From assembly GCA_964428465.1 (NCBI GenBank), contig CAYRYG010000003.1, positions 1 to 33,549 of the forward strand: a stretch of DNA of 33,549 nt, given 5' to 3'. Positions 4,239-31,733 of the stretch are shown piece after piece. A model generated the notes under the pieces. The model saw only the letters and a list, made by a program, of their open reading frames with translations. It was not told where the DNA came from and ran no database searches. The stretch comes from an uncultured Gammaproteobacteria bacterium (GTDB lineage: Bacteria; Patescibacteriota; Patescibacteriia; UBA9934; GWF2-40-263). A program made the position numbers and the translations under genes. Every line of letters begins with the position of its first letter. The stretch's first letter is position 1.

Positions 4239-4267
4239 ACGCTACAGCGATCATCCTGCCTTGTCAA
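4239..4267 (-). promoter_or_regulatory. Sigma70-type promoter TTGACA-17-TAGCGT
   Basis: -35 at 4267-4262 overlaps the upstream gene's stop; 17-bp spacer; -10 at 4244-4239. Confidence 0.65.
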
Positions 4268-5517
4268 GGGGAAGATGGAGCGGAATCGGCCGCATGTTCG
4301 CCCGCCAGCCGGCCGGTCGCCCAGGAGGCCTGGAGGTTGAATCCGCCCGTAAAGCCGTCCATGTCGAGGATTTCGCCCGCGAAAAACAGGCCCGGGCACA
4401 CCTTTGATTCCATGGTTCCCGGGTCGACCTCCGTCAGCTCCACGCCGCCGGTCGTGACGAACTCGTCCCCGGCCCCGCGCTGGACCACGTGGAGCGGGAT
4501 TCCCTTCAGCCACTCGGCCGCGCGCGCCATGTCCTTCTTGGCCACCTGGTTCGCGCGCTTGGTCTCCGAGATCCCAAGCTCGCGGACCATGGTCTCGGAA
4601 AGCGACTTCGGCACCACCTCCGCGAGCACGTTCGCGAACTGCTTGTGCGCGAACGAGCCGGCGTACGACTCGATGCGCGCGCGGAGCGTCGCGAGCGGGA
4701 CGTCGGGAAACAGGTCGATGCGGATCTCAAGCGGGTTCTTCGCGTCGTACGTCTCAAACGCCACGATCGAGGACAGCGCGAACACGGCCGGGCCGCTCAC
4801 ACCCTTGTGCGTGAAGAGGAAGGGGCCGGTAAACGTAAACCGTTTGTCGCGCGGCGAGGAGATGGTCGCGTTCTGGAACGACAGGCCCGAGAGCTCCTTG
4901 GGCCAGGTCTCGCTCGCGAAGAAGGCGTTGAGGGACGGGGCGAGCGGGGTGATGGCGTGGCCGAGCGCGGCGGCGAACGCGTAGCCGTCGCCCGTGGACC
5001 CGGTTTGCCGGTACGCCTGCCCGCCCGTGGTGAGCACGAGCGCGTCGACATCGAGGGGTTCGTCCTTCCCCTTGAAGATCAACCGGAACCCGTCCGGGGT
5101 CTTTTCGACCCGAACACAAGATGTGTTCAGCATCACATGCGCCCGCGAATTTTCAAACATCGTCTCGAACACCCGCACGATGTCGCGCCCGTTGTCGGAC
5201 CGCGGGAACACGCGCTGGTCGGCCTGGGTTTTCAGCGGGACGCCGTGCTCCTCGAACCAGGCGTACACCGCGTCCGGCGGGAAATGATACATGGCGCGGG
5301 TGAGGAACTTTCCGCCGCGCGGATACTTGGTCAGGAGCGCCCGGACGTCGTGGATCCCGGTCGTGACGTTGCAGCGCCCGCCGCCCGAGATAATCACCTT
5401 CTTGCCCAGCCCGTCGTTCCGCTCGATCAGAAACACCTCGGCGTCCGGATGGACGTCGAGCAGCGTGGCGGCACACATGAGTCCGGCGGCTCCCCCGCCC
5501 ACGATGGCAACGCGCAT
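4264..5517 (-). CDS. HI0933/YhiN (BaiN-like) family FAD-dependent oxidoreductase
   Basis: GGGAAG, GKKVIISGGGRCNVT, TGSTGDGY, FTHKGVSGP, VTTGGV and GFTGGFNLQ motifs. Confidence 0.93.
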   Translation of the reverse strand: MRVAIVGGGAAGLMCAATLLDVHPDAEVFLIERNDGLGKKVIISGGGRCNVTTGIHDVRALLTKYPRGGKFLTRAMYHFPPDAVYAWFEEHGVPLKTQADQRVFPRSDNGRDIVRVFETMFENSRAHVMLNTSCVRVEKTPDGFRLIFKGKDEPLDVDALVLTTGGQAYRQTGSTGDGYAFAAALGHAITPLAPSLNAFFASETWPKELSGLSFQNATISSPRDKRFTFTGPFLFTHKGVSGPAVFALSSIVAFETYDAKNPLEIRIDLFPDVPLATLRARIESYAGSFAHKQFANVLAEVVPKSLSETMVRELGISETKRANQVAKKDMARAAEWLKGIPLHVVQRGAGDEFVTTGGVELTEVDPGTMESKVCPGLFFAGEILDMDGFTGGFNLQASWATGRLAGEHAADSAPSSP

Positions 5518-6905: not shown

Positions 6906-8675
6906 TTACAACGAGATGATCTTTTCTTCGACCGCGAGCCACTCCTTCTCGATGGCCGCGAGCTCGTCGTTGAGCTCCGCGAGCCGCGTGGCCTTGTCCG
7001 GGGCGTAGTCCGTTGGGTTCTCGAAGAAGAACGCGAGCAGCCCGCTCTTCTCCTTGTCGATGGTCCCCATCCGCTCCTCGAGCCGCTCCTGCGCGCGTCG
7101 CAGCTGGCGGGACTGGAGAGCGCGTTCCTTGCGCTCGCGCGACGCCTCGGACGGCGCGTCCTCGCTGGCCGCATGGGTCGTCTCGTCCGCGATCGCGGTC
7201 AGGTCGGACACGTATTCCTCGTACGTCCCCGTGTAATGGCGCAGCGAGCCGTCGCGCACCTCGTAGAGATGGTCCACGAGCGCGTTCATGAAGGTTCTGG
7301 CATGTGACACCACCACGACGGTGCCGGCATACTGCTTGAGAGCCCCGGCGAGCACCTCCACGGTTTCCACGTCGAGGTGGTTGGTCGGCTCGTCGAGGAT
7401 GAGCACATTATGTGCTCGCAGGATGAGCCTGGCCAGGCGGACGCGCGCCCGCTCCCCTCCGGAGAGCACGCGGCACGGCTTCTCAAGGTCGTCGTTCTTG
7501 AAGAGGAACGCCCCGGCCGCCGCGAGCACCTGTTCCGCGGACGCGTCCGACGGCGCGGCGGCGGTGAGTGCCTGGAGCACGGTGAGGTCCGGCGACAGAG
7601 TTTCCTCGGACATCTGGGAGAAGTACCCGATGTCCGCGTGCGGCCACCACTTGTACTTCCCGTCCACGGGCGGCAGCACGCCGGCGAGCGTCTTGAGGAG
7701 CGTGGACTTGCCGCGCCCGTTCTCGCCGACGATCCCGACCTTCCATCCGCGCATGACGTCGAACGAGATGTCCCGCGCCACCGCGACTCCGTCGTATCCG
7801 ACCGCGAGGCCGTCGCACACCACGGCCGGGCCCGCGGTGATGCGCGGACACGGGATGCGAAACGCGGCGGTCGGCAAATCGGACCCGCTCTGGCGGATCT
7901 GCGACCGGAGCTTCGCGATGTGCTTGAGCTTGCTCTGCGCGCGCGTGGCCTGGCTCGCCTTCGCGCGGAACCGGTCCACGAACGCCTGCGCGTCGGCCAT
8001 CTCGCGGCGCAACCGCTTGTTCGTGCGGCGCAAAAACTCGGCTTGTTCGTCCTTCCAGTCCAAGTAGGTTTCCAGGTCGCCGGGGAATTCCGCGAGCTTG
8101 CCCCGCTCAATCTCCCACGTGGACGTGCAGATGTTCTGCATAGCCTCGCGGTCATGGGACGTCATCACGAACGCGCCAGGATATTCCTTCAAAAACGCCT
8201 CCAGAAGCAGCAGCGTGGGCAGGTCGAGGTAGTTCATCGGCTCGTCGAGCAGCAGCAGCGTGGGCCGCTCGAGCAGCATGCGCACGATCTTCACGCGCAT
8301 CTGGTACCCGCCGGACAGCGCCGCGGGCGGCTTCGCGAGATCCTCGGGCCTGAGCCCGAACCGCGCCGCGAGCTTCGCGCATTCCCATCCCGGCCGCCCG
8401 CTCCCCTCGGACAGATACCCGACCGCGGTCCCCGCGTCCGGCAGCACCTCGTGCTGGCGCAGGATCCCGAGCTTCGCCCGCGGCATCACGTGCACCTCGC
8501 CGCCGTCCGCCTCCTCGTCGCCGGCAATCACGCGCATGAGCGTCGTCTTCCCGGTCCCGTTGCGCCCGATGAGCCCGATGTGCGCGCCCTCGGAAATCAC
8601 AAACGAGATCCCGTCGAGGACCACCTGCCTTCCGTACGCCTTCGTCAGTTGTTTTACCTCGAGAAGCGGATGCAC
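6906..8675 (-). CDS. ABC-F family ATPase (ribosome-associated)
   Basis: Two NBDs (GRNGTGKT/LSGG/LDEP and GENGRGKST/LSGGE/LDEPTNHLD), an inter-domain linker, a coiled-coil C-terminus and no TM segments; GTG start inferred at VHPLLEVK. Confidence 0.92.
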   Translation of the reverse strand: MHPLLEVKQLTKAYGRQVVLDGISFVISEGAHIGLIGRNGTGKTTLMRVIAGDEEADGGEVHVMPRAKLGILRQHEVLPDAGTAVGYLSEGSGRPGWECAKLAARFGLRPEDLAKPPAALSGGYQMRVKIVRMLLERPTLLLLDEPMNYLDLPTLLLLEAFLKEYPGAFVMTSHDREAMQNICTSTWEIERGKLAEFPGDLETYLDWKDEQAEFLRRTNKRLRREMADAQAFVDRFRAKASQATRAQSKLKHIAKLRSQIRQSGSDLPTAAFRIPCPRITAGPAVVCDGLAVGYDGVAVARDISFDVMRGWKVGIVGENGRGKSTLLKTLAGVLPPVDGKYKWWPHADIGYFSQMSEETLSPDLTVLQALTAAAPSDASAEQVLAAAGAFLFKNDDLEKPCRVLSGGERARVRLARLILRAHNVLILDEPTNHLDVETVEVLAGALKQYAGTVVVVSHARTFMNALVDHLYEVRDGSLRHYTGTYEEYVSDLTAIADETTHAASEDAPSEASRERKERALQSRQLRRAQERLEERMGTIDKEKSGLLAFFFENPTDYAPDKATRLAELNDELAAIEKEWLAVEEKIISL

Positions 8676-8706
8676 ACTGGCTGAATGATGTGCTATAGTT
8701 ATGCTA

Positions 8707-11157
8707 ATGTCAAAGCGAACCAACAAGCCGTTGCTCACGTGCGGGCTCCTGGTCAGCGGAGGCTTACTTGTGCTTCTCACGGTGAAGGGATTGGACATGG
8801 CCGGCGTGATCACGCTGAGGCCGGAGCCGGTTCTGCCCGACGGAATCCTCGCGCGCTCCGACGAGAGCCCGCGCGTGTACGTGATCGAGAACCGCGAGAA
8901 GCGATGGGTTCCCTCGCTCGAGATCTTTAACGCGCAGGGGTTCGACTGGGGCGAGGTACGCGCGGTCACCGAGGACGACCTTTCCACGCACGACGAAGGC
9001 GCGCCCGTCGACCTGTACACGGACATCGTGCTCGCGGGCGAGGAGAGCGTCCTTCCCGACCTCATCCCGCTCGCCGGTCGCGACCTGTTTCTCAGCCGCG
9101 AAAACGGACGGCTGCTGCTTCGATTTACCACCATGTTCTGGAACGCGGGCGACGCGGCGCACGAGCTCATCGCCTATCCGGAAAAGGACCTGAACGCGGA
9201 GGACGGGTACCTCGACACCTACCAGCACATCGTCCGCGCGGACGGGACCACCCGCGACCGCCTGTCCGGGGTGTTCCTGTGGCACGCGCTGCACAACCAT
9301 TATCATTACGACCAGTTCGCGGACTACGTGCTCACCTTCGTGAGGCCGACCGTCGCGAACACGGTCCCGCCGCCGACGACCACGCACAAGACCACCTTCT
9401 GCATGCGCGACGACGCGGCCATCGACCTCACGCTCCCGAACGCCTCCGCCGCCAAGCGGTTCTCCGTGTGCGGGAAGTATCGCCAGGGCGTGTCCGTGGG
9501 ATGGGCCGACCGGTACGGCAGCGAGCTTCCCGACCAGTACATCGACGTGAACGACCTCCCCGCCGGCATTTACGCGTTGTCGTTCGTGGTGGACCCGAAC
9601 GGGCGGTTCCTCGAGACCAGCGACGGGAACAACACGAGCGTGACGCTCCTCGAGCTCGATCCCGCGAACGCGACCATGAGCGTCATCGCCAAGGCCGCGC
9701 CGTTCGAGACGTCCGACAACGACTTCCCCGACGGGATGCTGATCCGGTCGGAGGGCGACAGCAAGGTGTACGTCACGCAGAACGACCAGAAGCGCTGGCT
9801 GCGCGGCGAGGAGGTGTTCCTGGCATACGGGTACGCCTGGTCCGACATCTACGTGCTTCCCGCCGGGACGACCGACGCGATCCCGGACACCGACGTGCTC
9901 CGCGCCCCGGACGGGTCGCTGCACGCCATTAACGACGCGGGCTACCGCCGGCAGATCCTGAACCTCGACGTGTTCGCCTCCTACGGCTGGTCCGACGACG
10001 ATGTCGCCTCGGTCAATGCCACAGAGCTCGCCTCCTACCCGCAGACCGACTACATCATGCGCGAGGGCGACACGGGGGTGTTCTCCATCCGGACCAAGCG
10101 CTACGTGGGCACGCTCGACTCGCTCGGCGCCGCGGAGGCCGCGTCCGTGCACGTGGTGAACCAGACGGACTTCAACGCCTACGGCATCACGGTGGTCGCG
10201 ACCGGCCTCAGCGTCCCGTGGGACATCGTGTTCCTGCCGGACGGCGACATGCTGGTCACCGAGCGGCCGGGAACCCTCCGCCGCATCGGCGCGCGCAACG
10301 CGAGCATCGACATCCCGGACGTGAAGCACTCGGGCGAGGGCGGGCTCATGGGCATCGCGCTCCACCCGCAGTTCGCCGCCAACCAGTACGTGTACCTGTA
10401 CTTCACCACCACGGACGGCAACCAAAACCGCGTGCAGCGGTTCCGGCTCGAAGGCGACGCGCTCGTTGAGGACAAGATCATCATCGACGGGATCCCGGCC
10501 GAGCTGTACCACGACGGCGGGCAGATCGCGTTCGGCCCGGACGGCTATCTCTACGTCACCACCGGCGACGCCAGCGACGCCGACCAGGCGCAGGACCTCG
10601 GGTCGCTCGCCGGAAAGACGCTGCGCCTCACCTCGGACGGCGCGATCCCGTCGGACAACCCGTTCGGCACCGCGGTGTGGTCCTACGGCCACCGCAACGC
10701 GCAGGGGCTCGCCTGGGACGCGAGCGGACGCCTCTGGGAAACGGAACACGGCCGCTCGGGCGCGCTTTCCGGATACGACGAGGTCAACCGCGTCGAGAAG
10801 GGCAAGAACTACGGGTGGCCGACCATCCAGGGCGACCAATCGCGCGACGGAATGGTCACGCCGGCGGTCAACTCCGGCGCCACCACCACCTGGGCGCCGT
10901 CCGGGATCGCGTACGCGGACGGAAGCCTGTTCTTCGCCGGGCTGCGCGGCTCCGCCCTCTACGAGGTCACCTTCGGCCCGAACGGCACCGTGGCGGGCGT
11001 CACGCCGCATCTGGAGGGCCAGTACGGCCGCCTGCGCGCCGTGGTGCTCGGCCCGGACGGCTACCTGTACGTCACCACCTCCAACCTCGACGGCCGCGGC
11101 ACCCCGCGCCCCGGCGACGACCAGATCCTCAAAATCCACCCGGACTTCTTCAAATGA
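8707..11157 (+). CDS. Membrane-anchored lysyl oxidase-domain / PQQ-dependent sugar dehydrogenase (GSDH) fusion with ~55-aa repeats
   Basis: N-terminal hydrophobic helix; LOX motifs WHALHNHYHY, KTTFCMRD, QGVSVGWADRY, DQYIDV and E..GNN; GSDH motifs PWDIVFLPDG, HDGGQIAFGPDG, SYGHRNAQG and NYGWP; start 8701 or 8707. Confidence 0.88.
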   Translation: MSKRTNKPLLTCGLLVSGGLLVLLTVKGLDMAGVITLRPEPVLPDGILARSDESPRVYVIENREKRWVPSLEIFNAQGFDWGEVRAVTEDDLSTHDEGAPVDLYTDIVLAGEESVLPDLIPLAGRDLFLSRENGRLLLRFTTMFWNAGDAAHELIAYPEKDLNAEDGYLDTYQHIVRADGTTRDRLSGVFLWHALHNHYHYDQFADYVLTFVRPTVANTVPPPTTTHKTTFCMRDDAAIDLTLPNASAAKRFSVCGKYRQGVSVGWADRYGSELPDQYIDVNDLPAGIYALSFVVDPNGRFLETSDGNNTSVTLLELDPANATMSVIAKAAPFETSDNDFPDGMLIRSEGDSKVYVTQNDQKRWLRGEEVFLAYGYAWSDIYVLPAGTTDAIPDTDVLRAPDGSLHAINDAGYRRQILNLDVFASYGWSDDDVASVNATELASYPQTDYIMREGDTGVFSIRTKRYVGTLDSLGAAEAASVHVVNQTDFNAYGITVVATGLSVPWDIVFLPDGDMLVTERPGTLRRIGARNASIDIPDVKHSGEGGLMGIALHPQFAANQYVYLYFTTTDGNQNRVQRFRLEGDALVEDKIIIDGIPAELYHDGGQIAFGPDGYLYVTTGDASDADQAQDLGSLAGKTLRLTSDGAIPSDNPFGTAVWSYGHRNAQGLAWDASGRLWETEHGRSGALSGYDEVNRVEKGKNYGWPTIQGDQSRDGMVTPAVNSGATTTWAPSGIAYADGSLFFAGLRGSALYEVTFGPNGTVAGVTPHLEGQYGRLRAVVLGPDGYLYVTTSNLDGRGTPRPGDDQILKIHPDFFK

Positions 11158-11176
11158 TGCCGAGGGGTCCAGAACC

Positions 11177-11205
11177 TTGACATTTCCGAAGGAATCAGTT
11201 AGGAT
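11177..11205 (+). promoter_or_regulatory. Sigma70-type promoter TTGACA-17-TAGGAT for the helicase gene
   Basis: Consensus -35 with a 17-bp spacer. Confidence 0.7.
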
Positions 11206-11261
11206 ACCTTCTGATTTGCCCCGTTTGGGGCCAATAGACTCGAGCCTCGTGTGTCAACGAT

Positions 11262-20854: not shown

Positions 20855-21190
20855 GAAGCGGGGCGTGCAGCCCTTGGCGTTCCAGCCGGTGCCGCAGCAC
20901 ACGGTGAGGTTCACCGGCTTCTCCTGGACGTTCTTGGCCGTGACCTTGAACGCGATGCCGTCGCTGTCGCTGCAGCCGCTGCGGGCGACGTTCCAGGTGT
21001 CGGTGTCCGTGACGCGGGCGTCGGTCATCCCGAGCGCCTCGACCACCTCGATGGCCTTGGACGCGTCGGGCCGGCCGCAGCCGCCGACGTTGCCGACCGC
21101 GATGGCCGCGAGGATGCCGATGATGGCGATGACGATGACCAGCTCGACGAGCGAGAACCCGCGCCGCGCGCGGGAGGTGGATGCGTGCAT
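20852..21190 (-). CDS. Small type IV prepilin-like protein with a Cys-rich C-terminal domain
   Basis: RRG|FSLVELVIVIAIIGILAAIAV class III signal (G-1, F+1, E+5); GGAGG SD. Confidence 0.85.
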   Translation of the reverse strand: MHASTSRARRGFSLVELVIVIAIIGILAAIAVGNVGGCGRPDASKAIEVVEALGMTDARVTDTDTWNVARSGCSDSDGIAFKVTAKNVQEKPVNLTVCCGTGWNAKGCTPRF

Positions 21191-21216
21191 TCCGAGTGCC
21201 TCCGTTTGGCGTCTCG

Positions 21217-21245
21217 ACGCTATCAAAAAACCGGCCGTTTGTCAA
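21217..21245 (-). promoter_or_regulatory. Repeated sigma70 promoter, copy 2
   Basis: TTGACA AACGGCCGGTTTTTTGA TAGCGT. Confidence 0.8.
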
Positions 21246-27686: not shown

Positions 27687-30167
27687 TTAGCCGCGTTTGG
27701 CCGTTTTCGCAAGGCCGCGCGAAAGGCGGTAGGAAGCCAGCTTGACCGTCTCCGTGACGACGAAGTAGACGCCCACGATGCCGAGGATCAGCCAGAGGTC
27801 GTGCGACGTGGGCGTGACAAAATGAAAGACGTTCGTGCCCACGGACGTGAACGGGATCCAGATGGTCGCCGCGAACGCGGTGACGGAGAGCCAGAAGAGG
27901 ATCGGGGACGGCCGCGTGGCACGCCAGAACGGACGGCGCGTGCGGATGGAGAAGATGAGCACGAGCTCGGTCAGGATCGACCCGATGAACCAGTTCGTCT
28001 GCAGCACCTCCGGCGAGATGCGGTAGAACAGGCCGAAGAAGATGAAGTCGAACACGGTCGAGACCACGCCGAGCACCGTGGCCGCGTACACGATGTCGCG
28101 GATGTCGTAGGAGCGCGGGCGCTTGAGCTCGTCGCCGTCCACCGCGTCCGTGGCGATGGCGATCATCGGGAAGTCGGAAAGGAGATTGACGAGCAGGATC
28201 TGCACCGGGAGCATCGGGAGAAAGTCGACGAGGAGCGTGGCCGTCGCGACCGCGAGGAAGTTGCCGAAGTTCGAGGCGAGCGTGGCCTTGATGTACTTGA
28301 CCGTGTTCGCGAACACGGAACGGCCCTCGCGGATGCCGTTCACGATGACCTCGAGCGAATGCCGCATGAGCACGATGTCCGCGGCCTCGCGAGCGACGTC
28401 GCTCGCGCCGTCCACCACGATGCCGACCGACGCGATCTTGAGCGCGGGCGCGTCGTTGATCCCCTCCCCGAGGAATCCGACCTCGCAACGGCCGTGCTGC
28501 GCCTGGATGATGAGGAACTTCTGTCGCGGGGACACGCGCGCGAACACGGCGTGCGTAAGGACCGCGTCTATCCGATCCGTTTCCGACAGCGCCTCCCATT
28601 CCTCCCCGGTCATCACCTCCGCGTCCGACGCGATGAGGCCCACCTCGCGTGCCACGGCCGTCGCGACCTCCCGGCTGTCGCCGGTCAGAATTTTCACCGA
28701 AACCCCAAGTCGCTTGGCGTGCTCGATGGCCGATGCCGCCGACGCCTTCACCGGGTCCGCGAACGAAATCGCGCCGACGAGCTTCAACGCCGATTTTTCT
28801 CCAGAAGCGACCGCGATCACGCGGCGTCCCTTCTTTCCTTCCGCCGAGGCCCACGCCGCCATCCGCTCGCACCTGCCGTCGCACATCGCCGCGATCTCCT
28901 CCGGCGCGCCGCGCACGATGATCCTGCCGTCCACGACCACGCTGTTCCAGCGCCGGGCCGGGTCGAACGGGACCTCGTGCGACCGGCTGGCCGAGCTCGC
29001 GCGCGCCCGGTCGGATTCCGCCAGCCGGTTCCACACCGCGATGTCGAACGCGTTGTTCGGCGTCGCGCGCCGTTCTCCCAGGAAGGAAGACGCGACCGCC
29101 GCATCAAACACCGCGGCCTCGTGGTCCGATCCGAACACGTCCGTGACCTCCAGCTTATTCTCCGTCAGCGTCCCGGTCTTGTCCGTGCACAGCACCTCGA
29201 TGGACCCGAGGTCCTCGATTGCCGACAGGCGCTTCACCACCACCTTCTGCCGCGCCAGACGAAGCGCGCCGCGCGACAACGTGGTCGTGACCACGAGCGG
29301 CAGCGCCTCCGGGATGACCGAGACCGCGAGCGCGATGGAGAAGATCAGCAGGTCCGGGACGTTCACGGACCCGCCCTTGATCAACAGATTTGCGGCGAAC
29401 ACGGCGGCGAGCGTCACCAGGATGATACGCAGGATGAACGCGCTGAACGCGCCGAGGCTCTTCTCGAATCCGCTCTCCCCGTCGGTCTGCTGCGTCAGCT
29501 TCGTCACCTCGCCGATCTGCGTCCCGGTCCCCGTAGCCACGACGATCCCGACCCCGCGGCCGGACACCACCGTGGTTCCCGCGAACCCGACGTTCGTCGC
29601 GCGGTACGGTTCCGTCGCCTCCGTCTTCAGCGCCTCGACGATCTTCTTGACCGGGACCGACTCCCCCGTCAGCACGGATTCGTCCACGGTCAGGTCGTCC
29701 TCTTCCAAAAACCGAACGTCCGCGTGGATCATGTCGCCGGTCTCCACCACGACCACGTCGCCGGGCACGAGCTCCGCGCTGTCCACGAGCGTTTCCGTGC
29801 CGTCGCGCCGGACCCGCGCCTTCGCGCGCACGAACGTGCGAAGCAGCTCGACCGCGCGCTCGGAGTGATATTCCTGCGCGAACCCGAGTCCCGCGTTCAC
29901 GAGCACGAACGCCGCGATCATCGCCGCGTCCACCATCTCCCCGAGCGCGGCCGCGATGAGCGCCGCCGCGATGAGCAGGTACAAGAACGGGGACCTGAAC
30001 TGGCGGAGCAGGACGCGGTACCACCGCAGCCGCCCGCGCGAGATCTCATTGCGGCCGTGCTCGGCAAGGCGCCGGGCGGCCTCGCCGGGAACCAATCCCC
30101 CGCGCGAGCTGTCCAGGTCCCGGAGCAGGTCGGCATCGGATCGAATGGACGCGCTGGAAAATGTCAT
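27687..30167 (-). CDS. P-type ATPase, MgtA-like (Mg2+ importer, P3B)
   Basis: TGES, PEALP, DKTGTLT, TGD, GEGINDAP and ASNFGN. Confidence 0.88.
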   Translation of the reverse strand: MTFSSASIRSDADLLRDLDSSRGGLVPGEAARRLAEHGRNEISRGRLRWYRVLLRQFRSPFLYLLIAAALIAAALGEMVDAAMIAAFVLVNAGLGFAQEYHSERAVELLRTFVRAKARVRRDGTETLVDSAELVPGDVVVVETGDMIHADVRFLEEDDLTVDESVLTGESVPVKKIVEALKTEATEPYRATNVGFAGTTVVSGRGVGIVVATGTGTQIGEVTKLTQQTDGESGFEKSLGAFSAFILRIILVTLAAVFAANLLIKGGSVNVPDLLIFSIALAVSVIPEALPLVVTTTLSRGALRLARQKVVVKRLSAIEDLGSIEVLCTDKTGTLTENKLEVTDVFGSDHEAAVFDAAVASSFLGERRATPNNAFDIAVWNRLAESDRARASSASRSHEVPFDPARRWNSVVVDGRIIVRGAPEEIAAMCDGRCERMAAWASAEGKKGRRVIAVASGEKSALKLVGAISFADPVKASAASAIEHAKRLGVSVKILTGDSREVATAVAREVGLIASDAEVMTGEEWEALSETDRIDAVLTHAVFARVSPRQKFLIIQAQHGRCEVGFLGEGINDAPALKIASVGIVVDGASDVAREAADIVLMRHSLEVIVNGIREGRSVFANTVKYIKATLASNFGNFLAVATATLLVDFLPMLPVQILLVNLLSDFPMIAIATDAVDGDELKRPRSYDIRDIVYAATVLGVVSTVFDFIFFGLFYRISPEVLQTNWFIGSILTELVLIFSIRTRRPFWRATRPSPILFWLSVTAFAATIWIPFTSVGTNVFHFVTPTSHDLWLILGIVGVYFVVTETVKLASYRLSRGLAKTAKRG

Positions 30168-31117
30168 ACGACGAGGACATAGCCGACATACGCCACGTAC
30201 AGCGCGACGAACGCCGCGCCCTGCCAGCGTTCGAACTGATGTCGCCTGCCGACGAACATGCTGATGAACAGCAACACCGAAACGGCGACCACCACGGCCG
30301 CGTCACGCACGGCGAGGGCACCGAATGGCAGCGGGTTGATAAACGCGCTCAGCCCGAGGACCAGGAACACGTTGAAGATGTTGGAACCGACGATGTTGCC
30401 GACCGCGATGTCCGAATTTTTTTTCAGCGCGGCGACGACCGAGGTCGCCAGCTCGGGAAGCGACGTCCCGACGGCGACGACCGTCACGGCGATCACGTGC
30501 TCGGACAACCCGACCAACCGGGCGATCCCGACCGCGCCCTCGACGATCAGCGACCCGCCTACCGCGAGGGCCGTCAGGCCGCCAAGGACATAGGCCGCGA
30601 TACGCGGCGTGGGAAGTTCGTCCACGGGTTCTCCGCGCTCGCCGGACCCCTTGCTGATCGCGTGGATGTAATAGAGGAAGATCACGAAAAACGACAGGAG
30701 GACGAATCCGTCAATCCGCGTGATCGCGTTCGAGGACCGTCCGTCAAAGAGCACGTCGTTTCCCATCACCAACACGAGGACGGCGGCGAGCATGGAAAAC
30801 GGAATTTCCTTCCAGACCGTCGTGCGCTGCACGGCGAGCGGGCTGATGGCCGCGGCGAGCCCGAGAATGAGGAGGATGTTCGCGGCGTTGCTCCCGAGCA
30901 CGTTGCCTACCGCAATGTCGGTTTCGCCGAGCGCCGAGGAAAAGAGGTTCACGACGAGTTCCGGCGCCGACGTGCCGAACGCGACCACGGTGAGGCCGAC
31001 GACAAGCGCGCTGATGCCGAGACGACGCGCCAGCGACGACGCGCCGGCGACGAGATAGTGCGCGCCGCGCAGCAGCAGGAGGAAGCCGCCGGCGAGCATG
31101 AGCAGGTTAACGAGCAT
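30164..31117 (-). CDS. Calcium/sodium antiporter (YrbG/CaCA family)
   Basis: Two alpha repeats: GTSAPE..GNVLGSN and GTSLPE..GNIVGSNIFN. Confidence 0.93.
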   Translation of the reverse strand: MLVNLLMLAGGFLLLLRGAHYLVAGASSLARRLGISALVVGLTVVAFGTSAPELVVNLFSSALGETDIAVGNVLGSNAANILLILGLAAAISPLAVQRTTVWKEIPFSMLAAVLVLVMGNDVLFDGRSSNAITRIDGFVLLSFFVIFLYYIHAISKGSGERGEPVDELPTPRIAAYVLGGLTALAVGGSLIVEGAVGIARLVGLSEHVIAVTVVAVGTSLPELATSVVAALKKNSDIAVGNIVGSNIFNVFLVLGLSAFINPLPFGALAVRDAAVVVAVSVLLFISMFVGRRHQFERWQGAAFVALYVAYVGYVLVV

Positions 31118-31733
31118 AGCGGGATAAGACACGTGGATAGACGTCGAGAATCGTCTTGGCAATGGCCGGGTCCGCGAGGAATCGCTCCGCGAGTCCCACC
31201 ATCCGGTCCGCGCGGTCCGGGGCGATGCCGAGCTTCACCGAGAACGCGCGGTAGTCCGAGGCGTCGTCGCACGCCGGCGCGTACGCGGCGCGCAGGTCGG
31301 CGTAATACCGTTCCATGGGAGCGGTCTCTTCCCCGCACGGCCGCTGCGTCATGGCCAGTTCCCGCAGGATCGCCATGTCCGTGCCCAGCTGCCGCACCGA
31401 CTCCATGTCCTCGACCAGCTTCACGGACGTGAAGAACGCCCAGTCGTCCTTGCGCAGCTCCTCGGGAATCATCGTCAGCGTCTCGCGGCGAACCAGTACG
31501 GACGCTTGATCGTACGCAAGATGAGTCGCCCATCCCTTCTCAAAGTCGCCAAGCCCGTGCTGGAAGGGATCCTGCGGACAGAGCGCGTCGTTGTGCGTCG
31601 CCGTGCGCGGGATGCCGGTCGCGTATCGCGAGTCCGGATACACCGCGCCCGAATAGTACGCCGCGCGGTCCGTCACTAAGAGACGGACCGCCAGGTCCCG
31701 CGCGAATCGAACGTGCGTCGCTTCCATTGCCAT
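31107..31733 (-). CDS. Putative zinc-dependent phospholipase C / P1-nuclease-fold protein
   Basis: N-terminal ATH, SGAVYPD, ATH and GWATHLAYD pattern of metal ligands. Confidence 0.6.
   Translation of the reverse strand: MAMEATHVRFARDLAVRLLVTDRAAYYSGAVYPDSRYATGIPRTATHNDALCPQDPFQHGLGDFEKGWATHLAYDQASVLVRRETLTMIPEELRKDDWAFFTSVKLVEDMESVRQLGTDMAILRELAMTQRPCGEETAPMERYYADLRAAYAPACDDASDYRAFSVKLGIAPDRADRMVGLAERFLADPAIAKTILDVYPRVLSRYAR

Follow-up and report, generated by a model that had tools for sequence, protein, structure and literature searches.

A lysyl oxidase domain partnered with a PQQ-type propeller in exported proteins of Patescibacteria

What is a lysyl oxidase (LOX) domain doing on the same protein as a sugar-dehydrogenase propeller of the type that uses pyrroloquinoline quinone (PQQ)? 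The question is raised by an 818-aa gene product of an ultra-small groundwater member of the Patescibacteria (assembly GCA_964428465.1, contig CAYRYG010000003.1). The window referred to throughout is this one whole contig, 33,549 nt (33.5 kb) with 62-70% G+C; it belongs to a 1.25-Mb genome in 110 contigs, with completeness of 99.6% and contamination of 5.3%. Among loci with usable context, the two domains are obligate genomic partners in the LOX clade to which this protein belongs, and their gene layouts argue that they are functional partners as well.

The gene is a single open reading frame (ORF) at 8701..11157 (+; alternative start 8707) with a G+C content at third codon positions (GC3) of 0.93. 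Frame, Pfam matches and relatives identify it as an exported fusion of LOX with a GSDH propeller. An earlier note, made from the sequence, had placed the gene at 8707..11157; the frame is real and intact, and the start may lie two codons earlier, at 8701. The order of parts proposed there (signal, repeats, LOX, GSDH propeller) also holds. The extent of LOX, the repeat count and the description of the N-terminus as a transmembrane (TM) anchor have been corrected.

The LOX catalytic domain occupies residues ~100-345 (8998..9735, +), as delimited by Pfam, alignment with human LOXL2, relatives and a structure model. Pfam Lysyl_oxidase (PF01186) matches residues 192-323 on profile positions 78-198 of 204 (E 1.8e-15, 57.6 bits against a cut-off of 20.4). 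The previously proposed extent of ~9050-9660 is too short, because residues 101-340 are matched near full length by many LOX proteins: a search of 1.84 billion representatives returned 4037 proteins at E <= 0.001, 1642 at E <= 1e-10 and 93 at E <= 1e-30, and the best matches cover almost the whole query. An AlphaFold2 model of residues 36-500, built from 49 sequences, has a mean predicted local distance difference test (pLDDT) score of 93.6 and a predicted template modelling (pTM) score of 0.88. Its sole fold match in the PDB at E <= 0.001 is human LOXL2 (5ZE3, A/B; Foldseek E 6.4e-11, probability 1.00), which is also found by phmmer against the PDB (E 3.4e-9). A Pfam score above cut-off and a model matching the LOXL2 catalytic domain thus bear out the LOX assignment.

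Three motif pairs stand out in the phmmer alignment (fusion/LOXL2): WHALHNHYH/WHdcHrHYH, hKTTFC/hKasFC and WADRY/cwDmY. They place W194 at nt 9280, K230 at nt 9388 and Y272 at nt 9514, where the His cluster, Lys and Tyr had been read before, and they align with the copper and lysine tyrosylquinone (LTQ) residues of LOXL2. In LOXL2 the metal is held by His626, His628, His630 and Tyr689, the last being an LTQ precursor (PMC5899467); the other precursor is Lys653 (PMC9694262). The fusion has H198, H200 and H202 at the three His positions, and K230 and Y272 at Lys653 and Tyr689. Its C234-C257 pair aligns with the disulfide Cys657-Cys673, and E305, D308, N310 and N311 align with the Ca-site residues Glu722, Asp724, Asn727 and Asn728. 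Two further Ca-site residues, D120 and L121, are matched to Asp549 and Leu550 from the motif P119-D120-L121 as we read it. Among 40 fused proteins, H198, H200, H202, K230 and C234 are found in 39 (the other row has a gap), and C257 and Y272 in all 40. In a set of 49 fused and LOX-only proteins, the three His residues, K230, C234 and C257 are invariant and Y272 is present in 48, the sole exception being S in P0060. Judged by these residues, the LOX catalytic domain is complete, with a three-His copper site, LTQ Lys and Tyr, a Ca site and one disulfide.

The six-bladed GSDH/Asd-type PQQ propeller spans residues ~495-818 (10183..11154, +), which agrees with the earlier ~10186-11154; it is defined by Pfam, PDB matches and relatives. 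PF07995 (GSDH) matches residues 503-799 on profile positions 1-329 of 332 (E 5.1e-84, 282.8 bits against a cut-off of 25). Full-length PDB matches include enzymes of P. aerophilum (3A9G, E 1.1e-83), T. thermophilus (2ISM, E 1.3e-78) and S. coelicolor (3DAS, E 3.4e-73), E. coli Asd (2G8S, E 3.5e-37) and the soluble glucose dehydrogenase (sGDH) of A. calcoaceticus (1C9U, E 5.8e-30). Key propeller residues are H604 (in LYHDGGQIAFGPDG), H664-R665-N666 (R665 and N666 in GHRN), E682-H683, R777 and R779. H604 is present in all 40 fused proteins, and R665, N666 and R777 in 39 (the other row has a gap). We take H604 to be the counterpart of sGDH His144, a mapping based partly on the sGDH motif. His144 is the catalytic residue of sGDH, and an adjacent Arg-Asn pair and a C-terminal Arg are PQQ ligands conserved in bacterial enzymes (PMC6881789). 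R665-N666 and R777 are the equivalents of these ligands in the fusion. The twin entry of 3A9G, 3A9H, is described as a PQQ-dependent aldose sugar dehydrogenase (10.64898/2026.07.10.737718). By its conserved residues, then, the propeller is a complete one of the sGDH/Asd type, with the catalytic His and the PQQ-holding Arg-Asn pair kept. The idea that one chain may carry two different quinone cofactors stands as far as residues go: the cofactor and catalytic residues of both domains are kept.

Where would the PQQ come from? Models for PqqB, PqqC and PqqE find nothing in this 99.6%-complete genome. In a phylum sample of 401 genomes, this one included, PqqC is above cut-off in none, with six weak sub-threshold matches; a Streptomyces genome used as positive control gave 271.5 bits. 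GSDH propellers are above cut-off in 103 of the same 401 genomes. Since no PQQ synthesis genes were found, PQQ is probably scavenged from outside, as the earlier note had also supposed. A preprint reports PQQ six-bladed propellers in 247 candidate phyla radiation (CPR) genomes and PQQ synthesis genes in none of them, and proposes host-derived PQQ; according to the same source, propellers of uncultivated bacteria bind PQQ (10.64898/2026.07.10.737718). A contig labelled Nanoarchaeota (L021) encodes a stand-alone propeller 51% identical to that of the fusion, so the fusion-type propeller also occurs in ultra-small archaea. The preprint makes a like statement on ultra-small archaea for its own class of propellers (10.64898/2026.07.10.737718).

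The missing synthesis genes (PqqB/C/E in the genome, PqqC in the sampled phylum) would also fit a propeller that works without PQQ, as a binding or scaffold domain or with another cofactor, leaving LOX as the one catalyst. PQQ-free proteins of the GSDH fold do exist, for example Hedgehog-interacting protein, which is among the PDB matches. Such a role is nevertheless improbable. No row with a residue at these positions departs from the catalytic His, Arg-Asn pair or C-terminal Arg, and the divergent partner propellers described below retain them too; identity to solved PQQ enzymes is high; and the preprint's report of PQQ binding by propellers of uncultivated bacteria, with host-derived PQQ proposed for CPR, argues against it (10.64898/2026.07.10.737718).

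The two domains are found together well beyond the window. A word-indexed protein search returned 77 proteins at E <= 0.001. Thirty-nine clusters besides the query have both PF01186 and PF07995, at 49-62% identity; among the 77 are also 20 further relatives of 460-640 aa with repeats and LOX, without the propeller. The closest named relatives come from Paceibacter, Komeilibacteria, Doudnabacteria and 'Patescibacteria group bacterium', under record names such as 'PQQ-dependent sugar dehydrogenase', 'glucose/arabinose dehydrogenase', 'lysyl oxidase family protein' and 'hypothetical protein'. In the phylum sample, LOX is above cut-off in three genomes (four at E <= 0.001), and all three have GSDH linked to it: this genome, G386, where a single 904-aa frame holds both domains, and G384, where LOX and GSDH lie ~800 nt apart on one strand.

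Three layouts can be distinguished among the related loci. In the first, the domains are fused (the window, L003-L007, L009, L010, L083, L084, L085 and L090; also L008, with one internal stop). The second is found in L013 (Doudnabacteria), where the gene for a 662-aa repeat-LOX-repeat protein is separated by 32 nt from a downstream gene for a 399-aa GSDH protein, which has a lipoprotein-like signal of its own. In the third (L088, L089, L091 with its near-twin L092, L093 and L094), a LOX-only gene of 426-502 aa has directly upstream, on the same strand, a gene for an exported propeller protein of 533-550 aa. Each of these upstream proteins combines a single copy of this type of repeat with a divergent propeller, which matches PF07995 at E 3e-14 to 3e-20 and also TrAA12-like and DUF7133. 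Their propellers are 24-28% identical to that of the window, with His, Arg-Asn pair and C-terminal Arg all retained. Every Patescibacteria-type LOX locus that has sufficient context thus comes with a PQQ-type propeller partner.

A maximum-likelihood tree was built from 30 LOX domains. The Patescibacteria-type domains group in it as one clade with support of 100/100, apart from eight soil LOX that serve as outgroup and were hand-picked from about fifty rows. The layouts are interleaved inside this clade; branches starred in the tree force at least two changes of the fused label. Records L003, L005 and L007 are titled 'uncultured Gammaproteobacteria bacterium'; their LOX domains lie within the Patescibacteria-type clade, and the labels look generic or wrong.

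LOX genes from elsewhere give a different picture. No GSDH was found by tblastn with the window propeller in the flanks of 55 distant soil single-domain LOX loci (L096-L150), one of which (L147) gave no match at all. Likewise, Pfam found no GSDH and no PQQ family in 117 ORFs near soil LOX; these were at least 230 aa long, within 3.5 kb, and came from 230 ORFs of at least 150 aa after GC3 filtering and overlap removal. As there is no GSDH near soil LOX, the pairing is not general for bacterial LOX in the sample. Seen from the other side, 71 stand-alone GSDH loci from many phyla (L011-L082 without L013) have no LOX, repeat or M23 orthologue within 6 kb.

Two independent enzymes with unrelated substrates could share a tether, having been fused for co-display. 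The repeats would then be a general display module, and they do occur on five other exported proteins of the genome; stand-alone propellers are common (103/401 genomes), and LOX is near none of the 71 stand-alone GSDH loci. Set against this, a propeller partner is kept across three layouts, including a swap of propeller class, in every usable locus of the clade, and LOX and GSDH are linked in each of the three LOX-bearing genomes of the 401. Mere co-display is therefore considered rather unlikely.

A closer coupling is also conceivable. In a redox relay, the propeller would oxidise a sugar and pass electrons to the copper/quinone centre of LOX and on to O2, making the protein a sugar oxidase or peroxide generator. 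Fungal PQQ (AA12) dehydrogenases feed electrons to copper lytic polysaccharide monooxygenases (LPMOs), a precedent for a PQQ domain driving a copper enzyme (PMC6881789). PQQH2 would need some acceptor in these organisms, and MsrA genes lie near the unit in two of 18 loci. As two propeller classes, only 24-28% identical, partner LOX, what matters may be the redox chemistry of PQQ and not one particular substrate pocket. Other observations make a relay unlikely: the protein has no cytochrome or other mediator domain, the fully kept LTQ Lys and Tyr point to ordinary amine oxidation, and no confident contact between LOX and propeller is predicted.

This last point concerns a complex prediction of residues 100-500 against 501-818, which scored 0.69; the best of three controls scored 0.01. 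The score passes the mark used for it, which 116 of 157 solved complexes and 2 of 215 mismatched pairs reach. At least 90% of contacts recur between runs, and the pLDDT of the partner is 89 or higher. The confident interface consists of residues 495-500 against 808-813, 771 and 790, to which residues 466-468, 488 and 492 add a few contacts; the predicted interface list has no residue of the LOX domain. In this prediction, residues 495-500 lie against 808-813 and supply the strand by which the propeller closes. The apparent contact between domains was rejected, as it is the propeller's own strand, split off by the cut at 500/501. An interface between the propeller's first strand and its last blade says nothing on contact between LOX and propeller.

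Could the fusion be an assembly chimera or a dead gene? The one observation in favour comes from L008 (Komeilibacteria), which has a single in-frame TAA (7018-7020) inside repeat 2; the residue found there in other members is A, K, R, Q, P, E, H, N or D. The stop may stem from a sequencing error, or the gene may be split or dead. The frame in the window is intact with the GC3 given above, and the fused frame is also unbroken in 11 of the 12 related loci that hold both domains. In four groundwater runs from two studies, Logan contigs cover 8601-11257, with the junction in one piece. Runs X1 and X2 are identical over this region, and may be the source samples; X6 gives short pieces only. Run X5 is from an independent study, and one of its contigs spans the region at ~94% identity, with 154 differences and 3 small gaps. 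An artefact is accordingly given almost no credence and was rejected on the basis of the intact frame, the relatives and the X5 contig; the possibility of a chimera, raised earlier, is answered by the related loci and by this independent contig. In X5, a one-base insertion and a one-base deletion lie four bases apart in the propeller (window 10641-10645); they compensate each other, so the frame is kept.

At the N-terminus (8701..8800, +), sequence reading and the signal-peptide-like N-termini of relatives indicate an export signal. Residues 1-~33 have basic K5, R6 and K9 followed by an 18-residue hydrophobic stretch. A lipoprotein reading of 'LLTC' at residues 11-14 was rejected, because the hydrophobic stretch comes after the Cys, not before it. 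The relatives have ordinary, cleavable-looking signal peptides. The hydrophobic segment that had been called a TM anchor does exist, and it is better described, in light of these relatives, as an export signal. By these features the fusion protein is exported, its N-terminus acting as either a signal peptide or a signal anchor.

Four units of a ~50-aa repeat surround the LOX domain, one N-terminal and three C-terminal to it; earlier, one had been seen before LOX and '2-3' after it, and a custom repeat hidden Markov model (HMM) settles the number at three, for a total of four. Unit 1 (residues 50-97; 8848..8991, +; E 2.1e-14) is a beta/alpha module, modelled as three strands, helix, strand and helix. 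Units 2-4 (residues 346-397, 400-449 and 450-494; 9736..10182, +) match at E 1.2e-18, 4.7e-17 and 2.6e-12. No Pfam family matches the repeat. The model of units 2-4 has a pLDDT of 94.3; it has no Foldseek PDB match at E <= 0.001 (best E 0.06) and no VIA wide match with Z >= 5. The best VIA matches, all weak, are 6IST (Z 4.4), 4F87 (3.6), 3X3M (3.5) and 7D55 (3.3). A search of the ESM Atlas with residues 346-494 was uninformative (best score 0.78).

According to the same custom HMM, five other exported proteins of this genome have this repeat. C7:7100-8560, on contig C7, has four units (E 1.3e-27); C82:2701-4353 carries the repeat together with Peptidase_M23 (E 2.6e-14); C35:2122-3897 has it as well, and C21:2653-3861 and C28:11529-12614 give weaker matches. 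The four without M23 have no Pfam family at E <= 0.01. The N-terminal part of the C7 protein looks like a glycan hydrolase, by eye only.

An M23 peptidase also recurs beside the LOX-propeller unit. An orthologue of ~230 aa lies directly upstream in 10 of 18 related loci, spread over all three layouts, either on the same strand (L003, L004, L006 and L007) or divergent (L008, L013, L089, L091, L093 and L094). The neighbour scan covered 59 of 97 listed ORFs, those nearest the unit; L088:5442-6257 was scanned in place of the overlapping opposite-strand L088:5637-6152. The M23 proteins carry H-x-x-x-D and H-x-H, which are presumably the M23 catalytic motifs. The peptidase link and the wall-binding-like character of the repeats point to the cell wall, rather than pili, as the probable place of action.

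Other genes are found near the unit in a few loci. A Cu-oxidase_4 (YfiH/PgeF-type) gene is just downstream in L091 (5425-6168) and L094 (5312-6028). Peptidase_C39_2 neighbours are present in L088 (5442-6257) and L093 (711-1475), and the two MsrA genes are L010:9423-9965 and L089:806-1357. A gene for a HI0933-like flavoprotein adjoins the unit on its upstream side in L010 and L083; in the window, such a gene lies ~3 kb upstream, at 4267-5517 (-).

Taken together, the reading favoured here, and held to be fairly probable, is an exported bifunctional oxidoreductase, encoded by a small groundwater clade of Patescibacteria and held on the wall, in which LOX and PQQ propeller work as a pair on one substrate. 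The repeats would hold the enzyme on the peptidoglycan of the cell's own wall or that of a host. Copper-loaded LOX would oxidise primary amines to aldehydes, releasing NH3 and H2O2; its likeliest targets would be amino groups that the associated M23 peptidase exposes on peptidoglycan peptides, either free epsilon-amino groups of Lys or N-terminal ones. With PQQ taken up from the environment or a host, the propeller would oxidise a hemiacetal or hydrated aldehyde of that polymer, which could be a reducing sugar end or what LOX has produced. A more far-reaching version would have M23 free the amino groups and LOX make aldehydes that form new covalent cross-links inside the symbiont wall or between the symbiont and the envelope of its host, with the propeller trimming or fixing the products. 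This version is speculative and thought unlikely; if true, bacteria would have their own equivalent of extracellular-matrix cross-linking, dependent on a host-derived cofactor.

Several points weigh against a wall-held LOX-PQQ pair. Because the related genomes descend from common ancestors, the loci counted are not independent of one another, and three LOX loci (L086, L087 and L095) end at the LOX gene and cannot be scored for a partner; the LOX part of L086 is identical to that of the fused L003. The propeller scores far under the cut-off of NCBIfam TIGR03606 (glucose/sorbosone PQQ-dependent dehydrogenase; 146.5 bits against 434.55, a partial match to positions 12-281 of 454) and is therefore not assigned to that subfamily. 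An organism unable to make PQQ may not use it. As regards the wall, eight of the 18 loci have no adjacent M23 gene, one of them (L005) having too little upstream DNA to tell. The orthologue in this genome (40-59% identical to the ten) is on another contig, at C16:9191-9715. In the window nothing adjoining the fusion gene relates to the wall, and the fold matches of the repeats are weak (VIA Z 3.3-4.4; Foldseek none at E <= 0.001).

The neighbours of the fusion gene in the window are a divergent ABC-F ATPase gene and a DEAD-box helicase gene; as these are housekeeping genes, the fusion gene has no operon partner in this genome. Upstream of it is a promoter-like site (8671..8699, +; consensus scan only), TGCACA-17-TATAGT, with a TG before the -10 element (extended -10). 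The scan found four sites in the region, against a mean of 0.4 in shuffles. This site ends at 8699, 1-7 nt before the two candidate ATGs. Codon three, at 8707, is likewise ATG, and most relatives align from this Met; with the position of the promoter-like site, this makes starts at 8701 and 8707 both possible. The short distance from site to ATG also means that the mRNA may be leaderless or nearly so. Scans for tRNA and Rfam families found neither in the window. Elsewhere in the window are genes for a small protein whose N-terminus has the methylation motif of type IV pilins (20855-21226, -) and for a P-type cation ATPase (27690-31162, -), the latter beside a Na/Ca exchanger.

Both domains of the fusion belong to known families. 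The earlier note knew of no characterised protein with this architecture, and literature searches found no paper on the LOX-propeller combination, the repeats or the M23 link. A 2015 survey of LOX evolution describes most prokaryotic LOX as having simple, mostly single-domain architectures, and its main text does not mention GSDH, sorbosone or PQQ (PMC4448552). The available text of the PQQ propeller preprint does not contain 'lysyl' (10.64898/2026.07.10.737718). The role of prokaryotic LOX has been called 'enigmatic' and 'cryptic' (PMC6452851). Here, a whole LOX clade is tied to a PQQ-type propeller by fusion, neighbourhood and partner swap, often beside a peptidoglycan peptidase, and this pairing makes bacterial LOX function testable via defined assays on wall peptides and sugars. 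A single exported chain from a genome of 1.25 Mb would depend on copper and on two quinones, one made within the protein itself and one borrowed; such cofactor needs are a concrete dependence of an ultra-small symbiont on its surroundings.

How does the fusion compare with known systems? It has the fold of human LOXL2 (5ZE3) and, in common with it, a copper motif H-x-H-x-H, both LTQ precursors (Lys and Tyr), the residues of the Ca site and one disulfide. Identity is 17-19%, however, and of the five disulfides of the LOXL2 catalytic domain only one is evident. SRCR and propeptide domains are absent from the fusion, which has its LOX flanked by bacterial ~50-aa repeats and joined to a propeller; its substrate cannot be collagen or elastin. 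Archaeal HTU-LOX is likewise a prokaryotic LOX-domain protein with a hydrophobic N-terminus. It is reported to be copper-dependent and sensitive to beta-aminopropionitrile (BAPN), and to oxidise many primary amines including Lys polymers, aminoglycosides and polymyxin (PMC6452851). By analogy with this relaxed specificity, a relaxed amine specificity is plausible for the fusion LOX, and a non-protein amine is a possible substrate. The available account of HTU-LOX describes no fusion partner and calls its native role 'cryptic' (PMC6452851), whereas the fusion sits in a separate LOX clade with a propeller partner.

The repeats resemble wall-binding modules of phage lysins (LysIME-EF1, 6IST; PlyCB, 4F87; Lys170, 7D55) and the repeats of EccB1 (3X3M, 5CYU) in being small, tandem beta/alpha units of ~50 residues. 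They differ in that identity is 6-18%, fold matches are weak and no Pfam family applies. They can be regarded as wall-binding-like, which is consistent with the cell-wall theme and not a demonstration of it.

The propeller itself resembles soluble PQQ aldose dehydrogenases (3A9G/3A9H, 2ISM, 3DAS, 2G8S and 1C9U) in its full-length match and in its His, Arg-Asn pair and C-terminal Arg. Those enzymes are single-domain and periplasmic or soluble, whereas the propeller of the fusion forms the C-terminal part of a protein that also contains LOX. In overall plan, the fusion is also like the fungal enzyme CcPDH (AA8-AA12-CBM1), which is extracellular and combines a six-bladed PQQ propeller with a second redox domain and a polymer-binding module; enzymes of this type serve the copper enzyme LPMO (PMC6881789). 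The partner domain of CcPDH is a cytochrome b (PMC6881789) and that of the fusion is LOX. The fusion propeller is of the Asd type, and matches to TrAA12-like are confined to the separate partner propellers of its LOX-only relatives.

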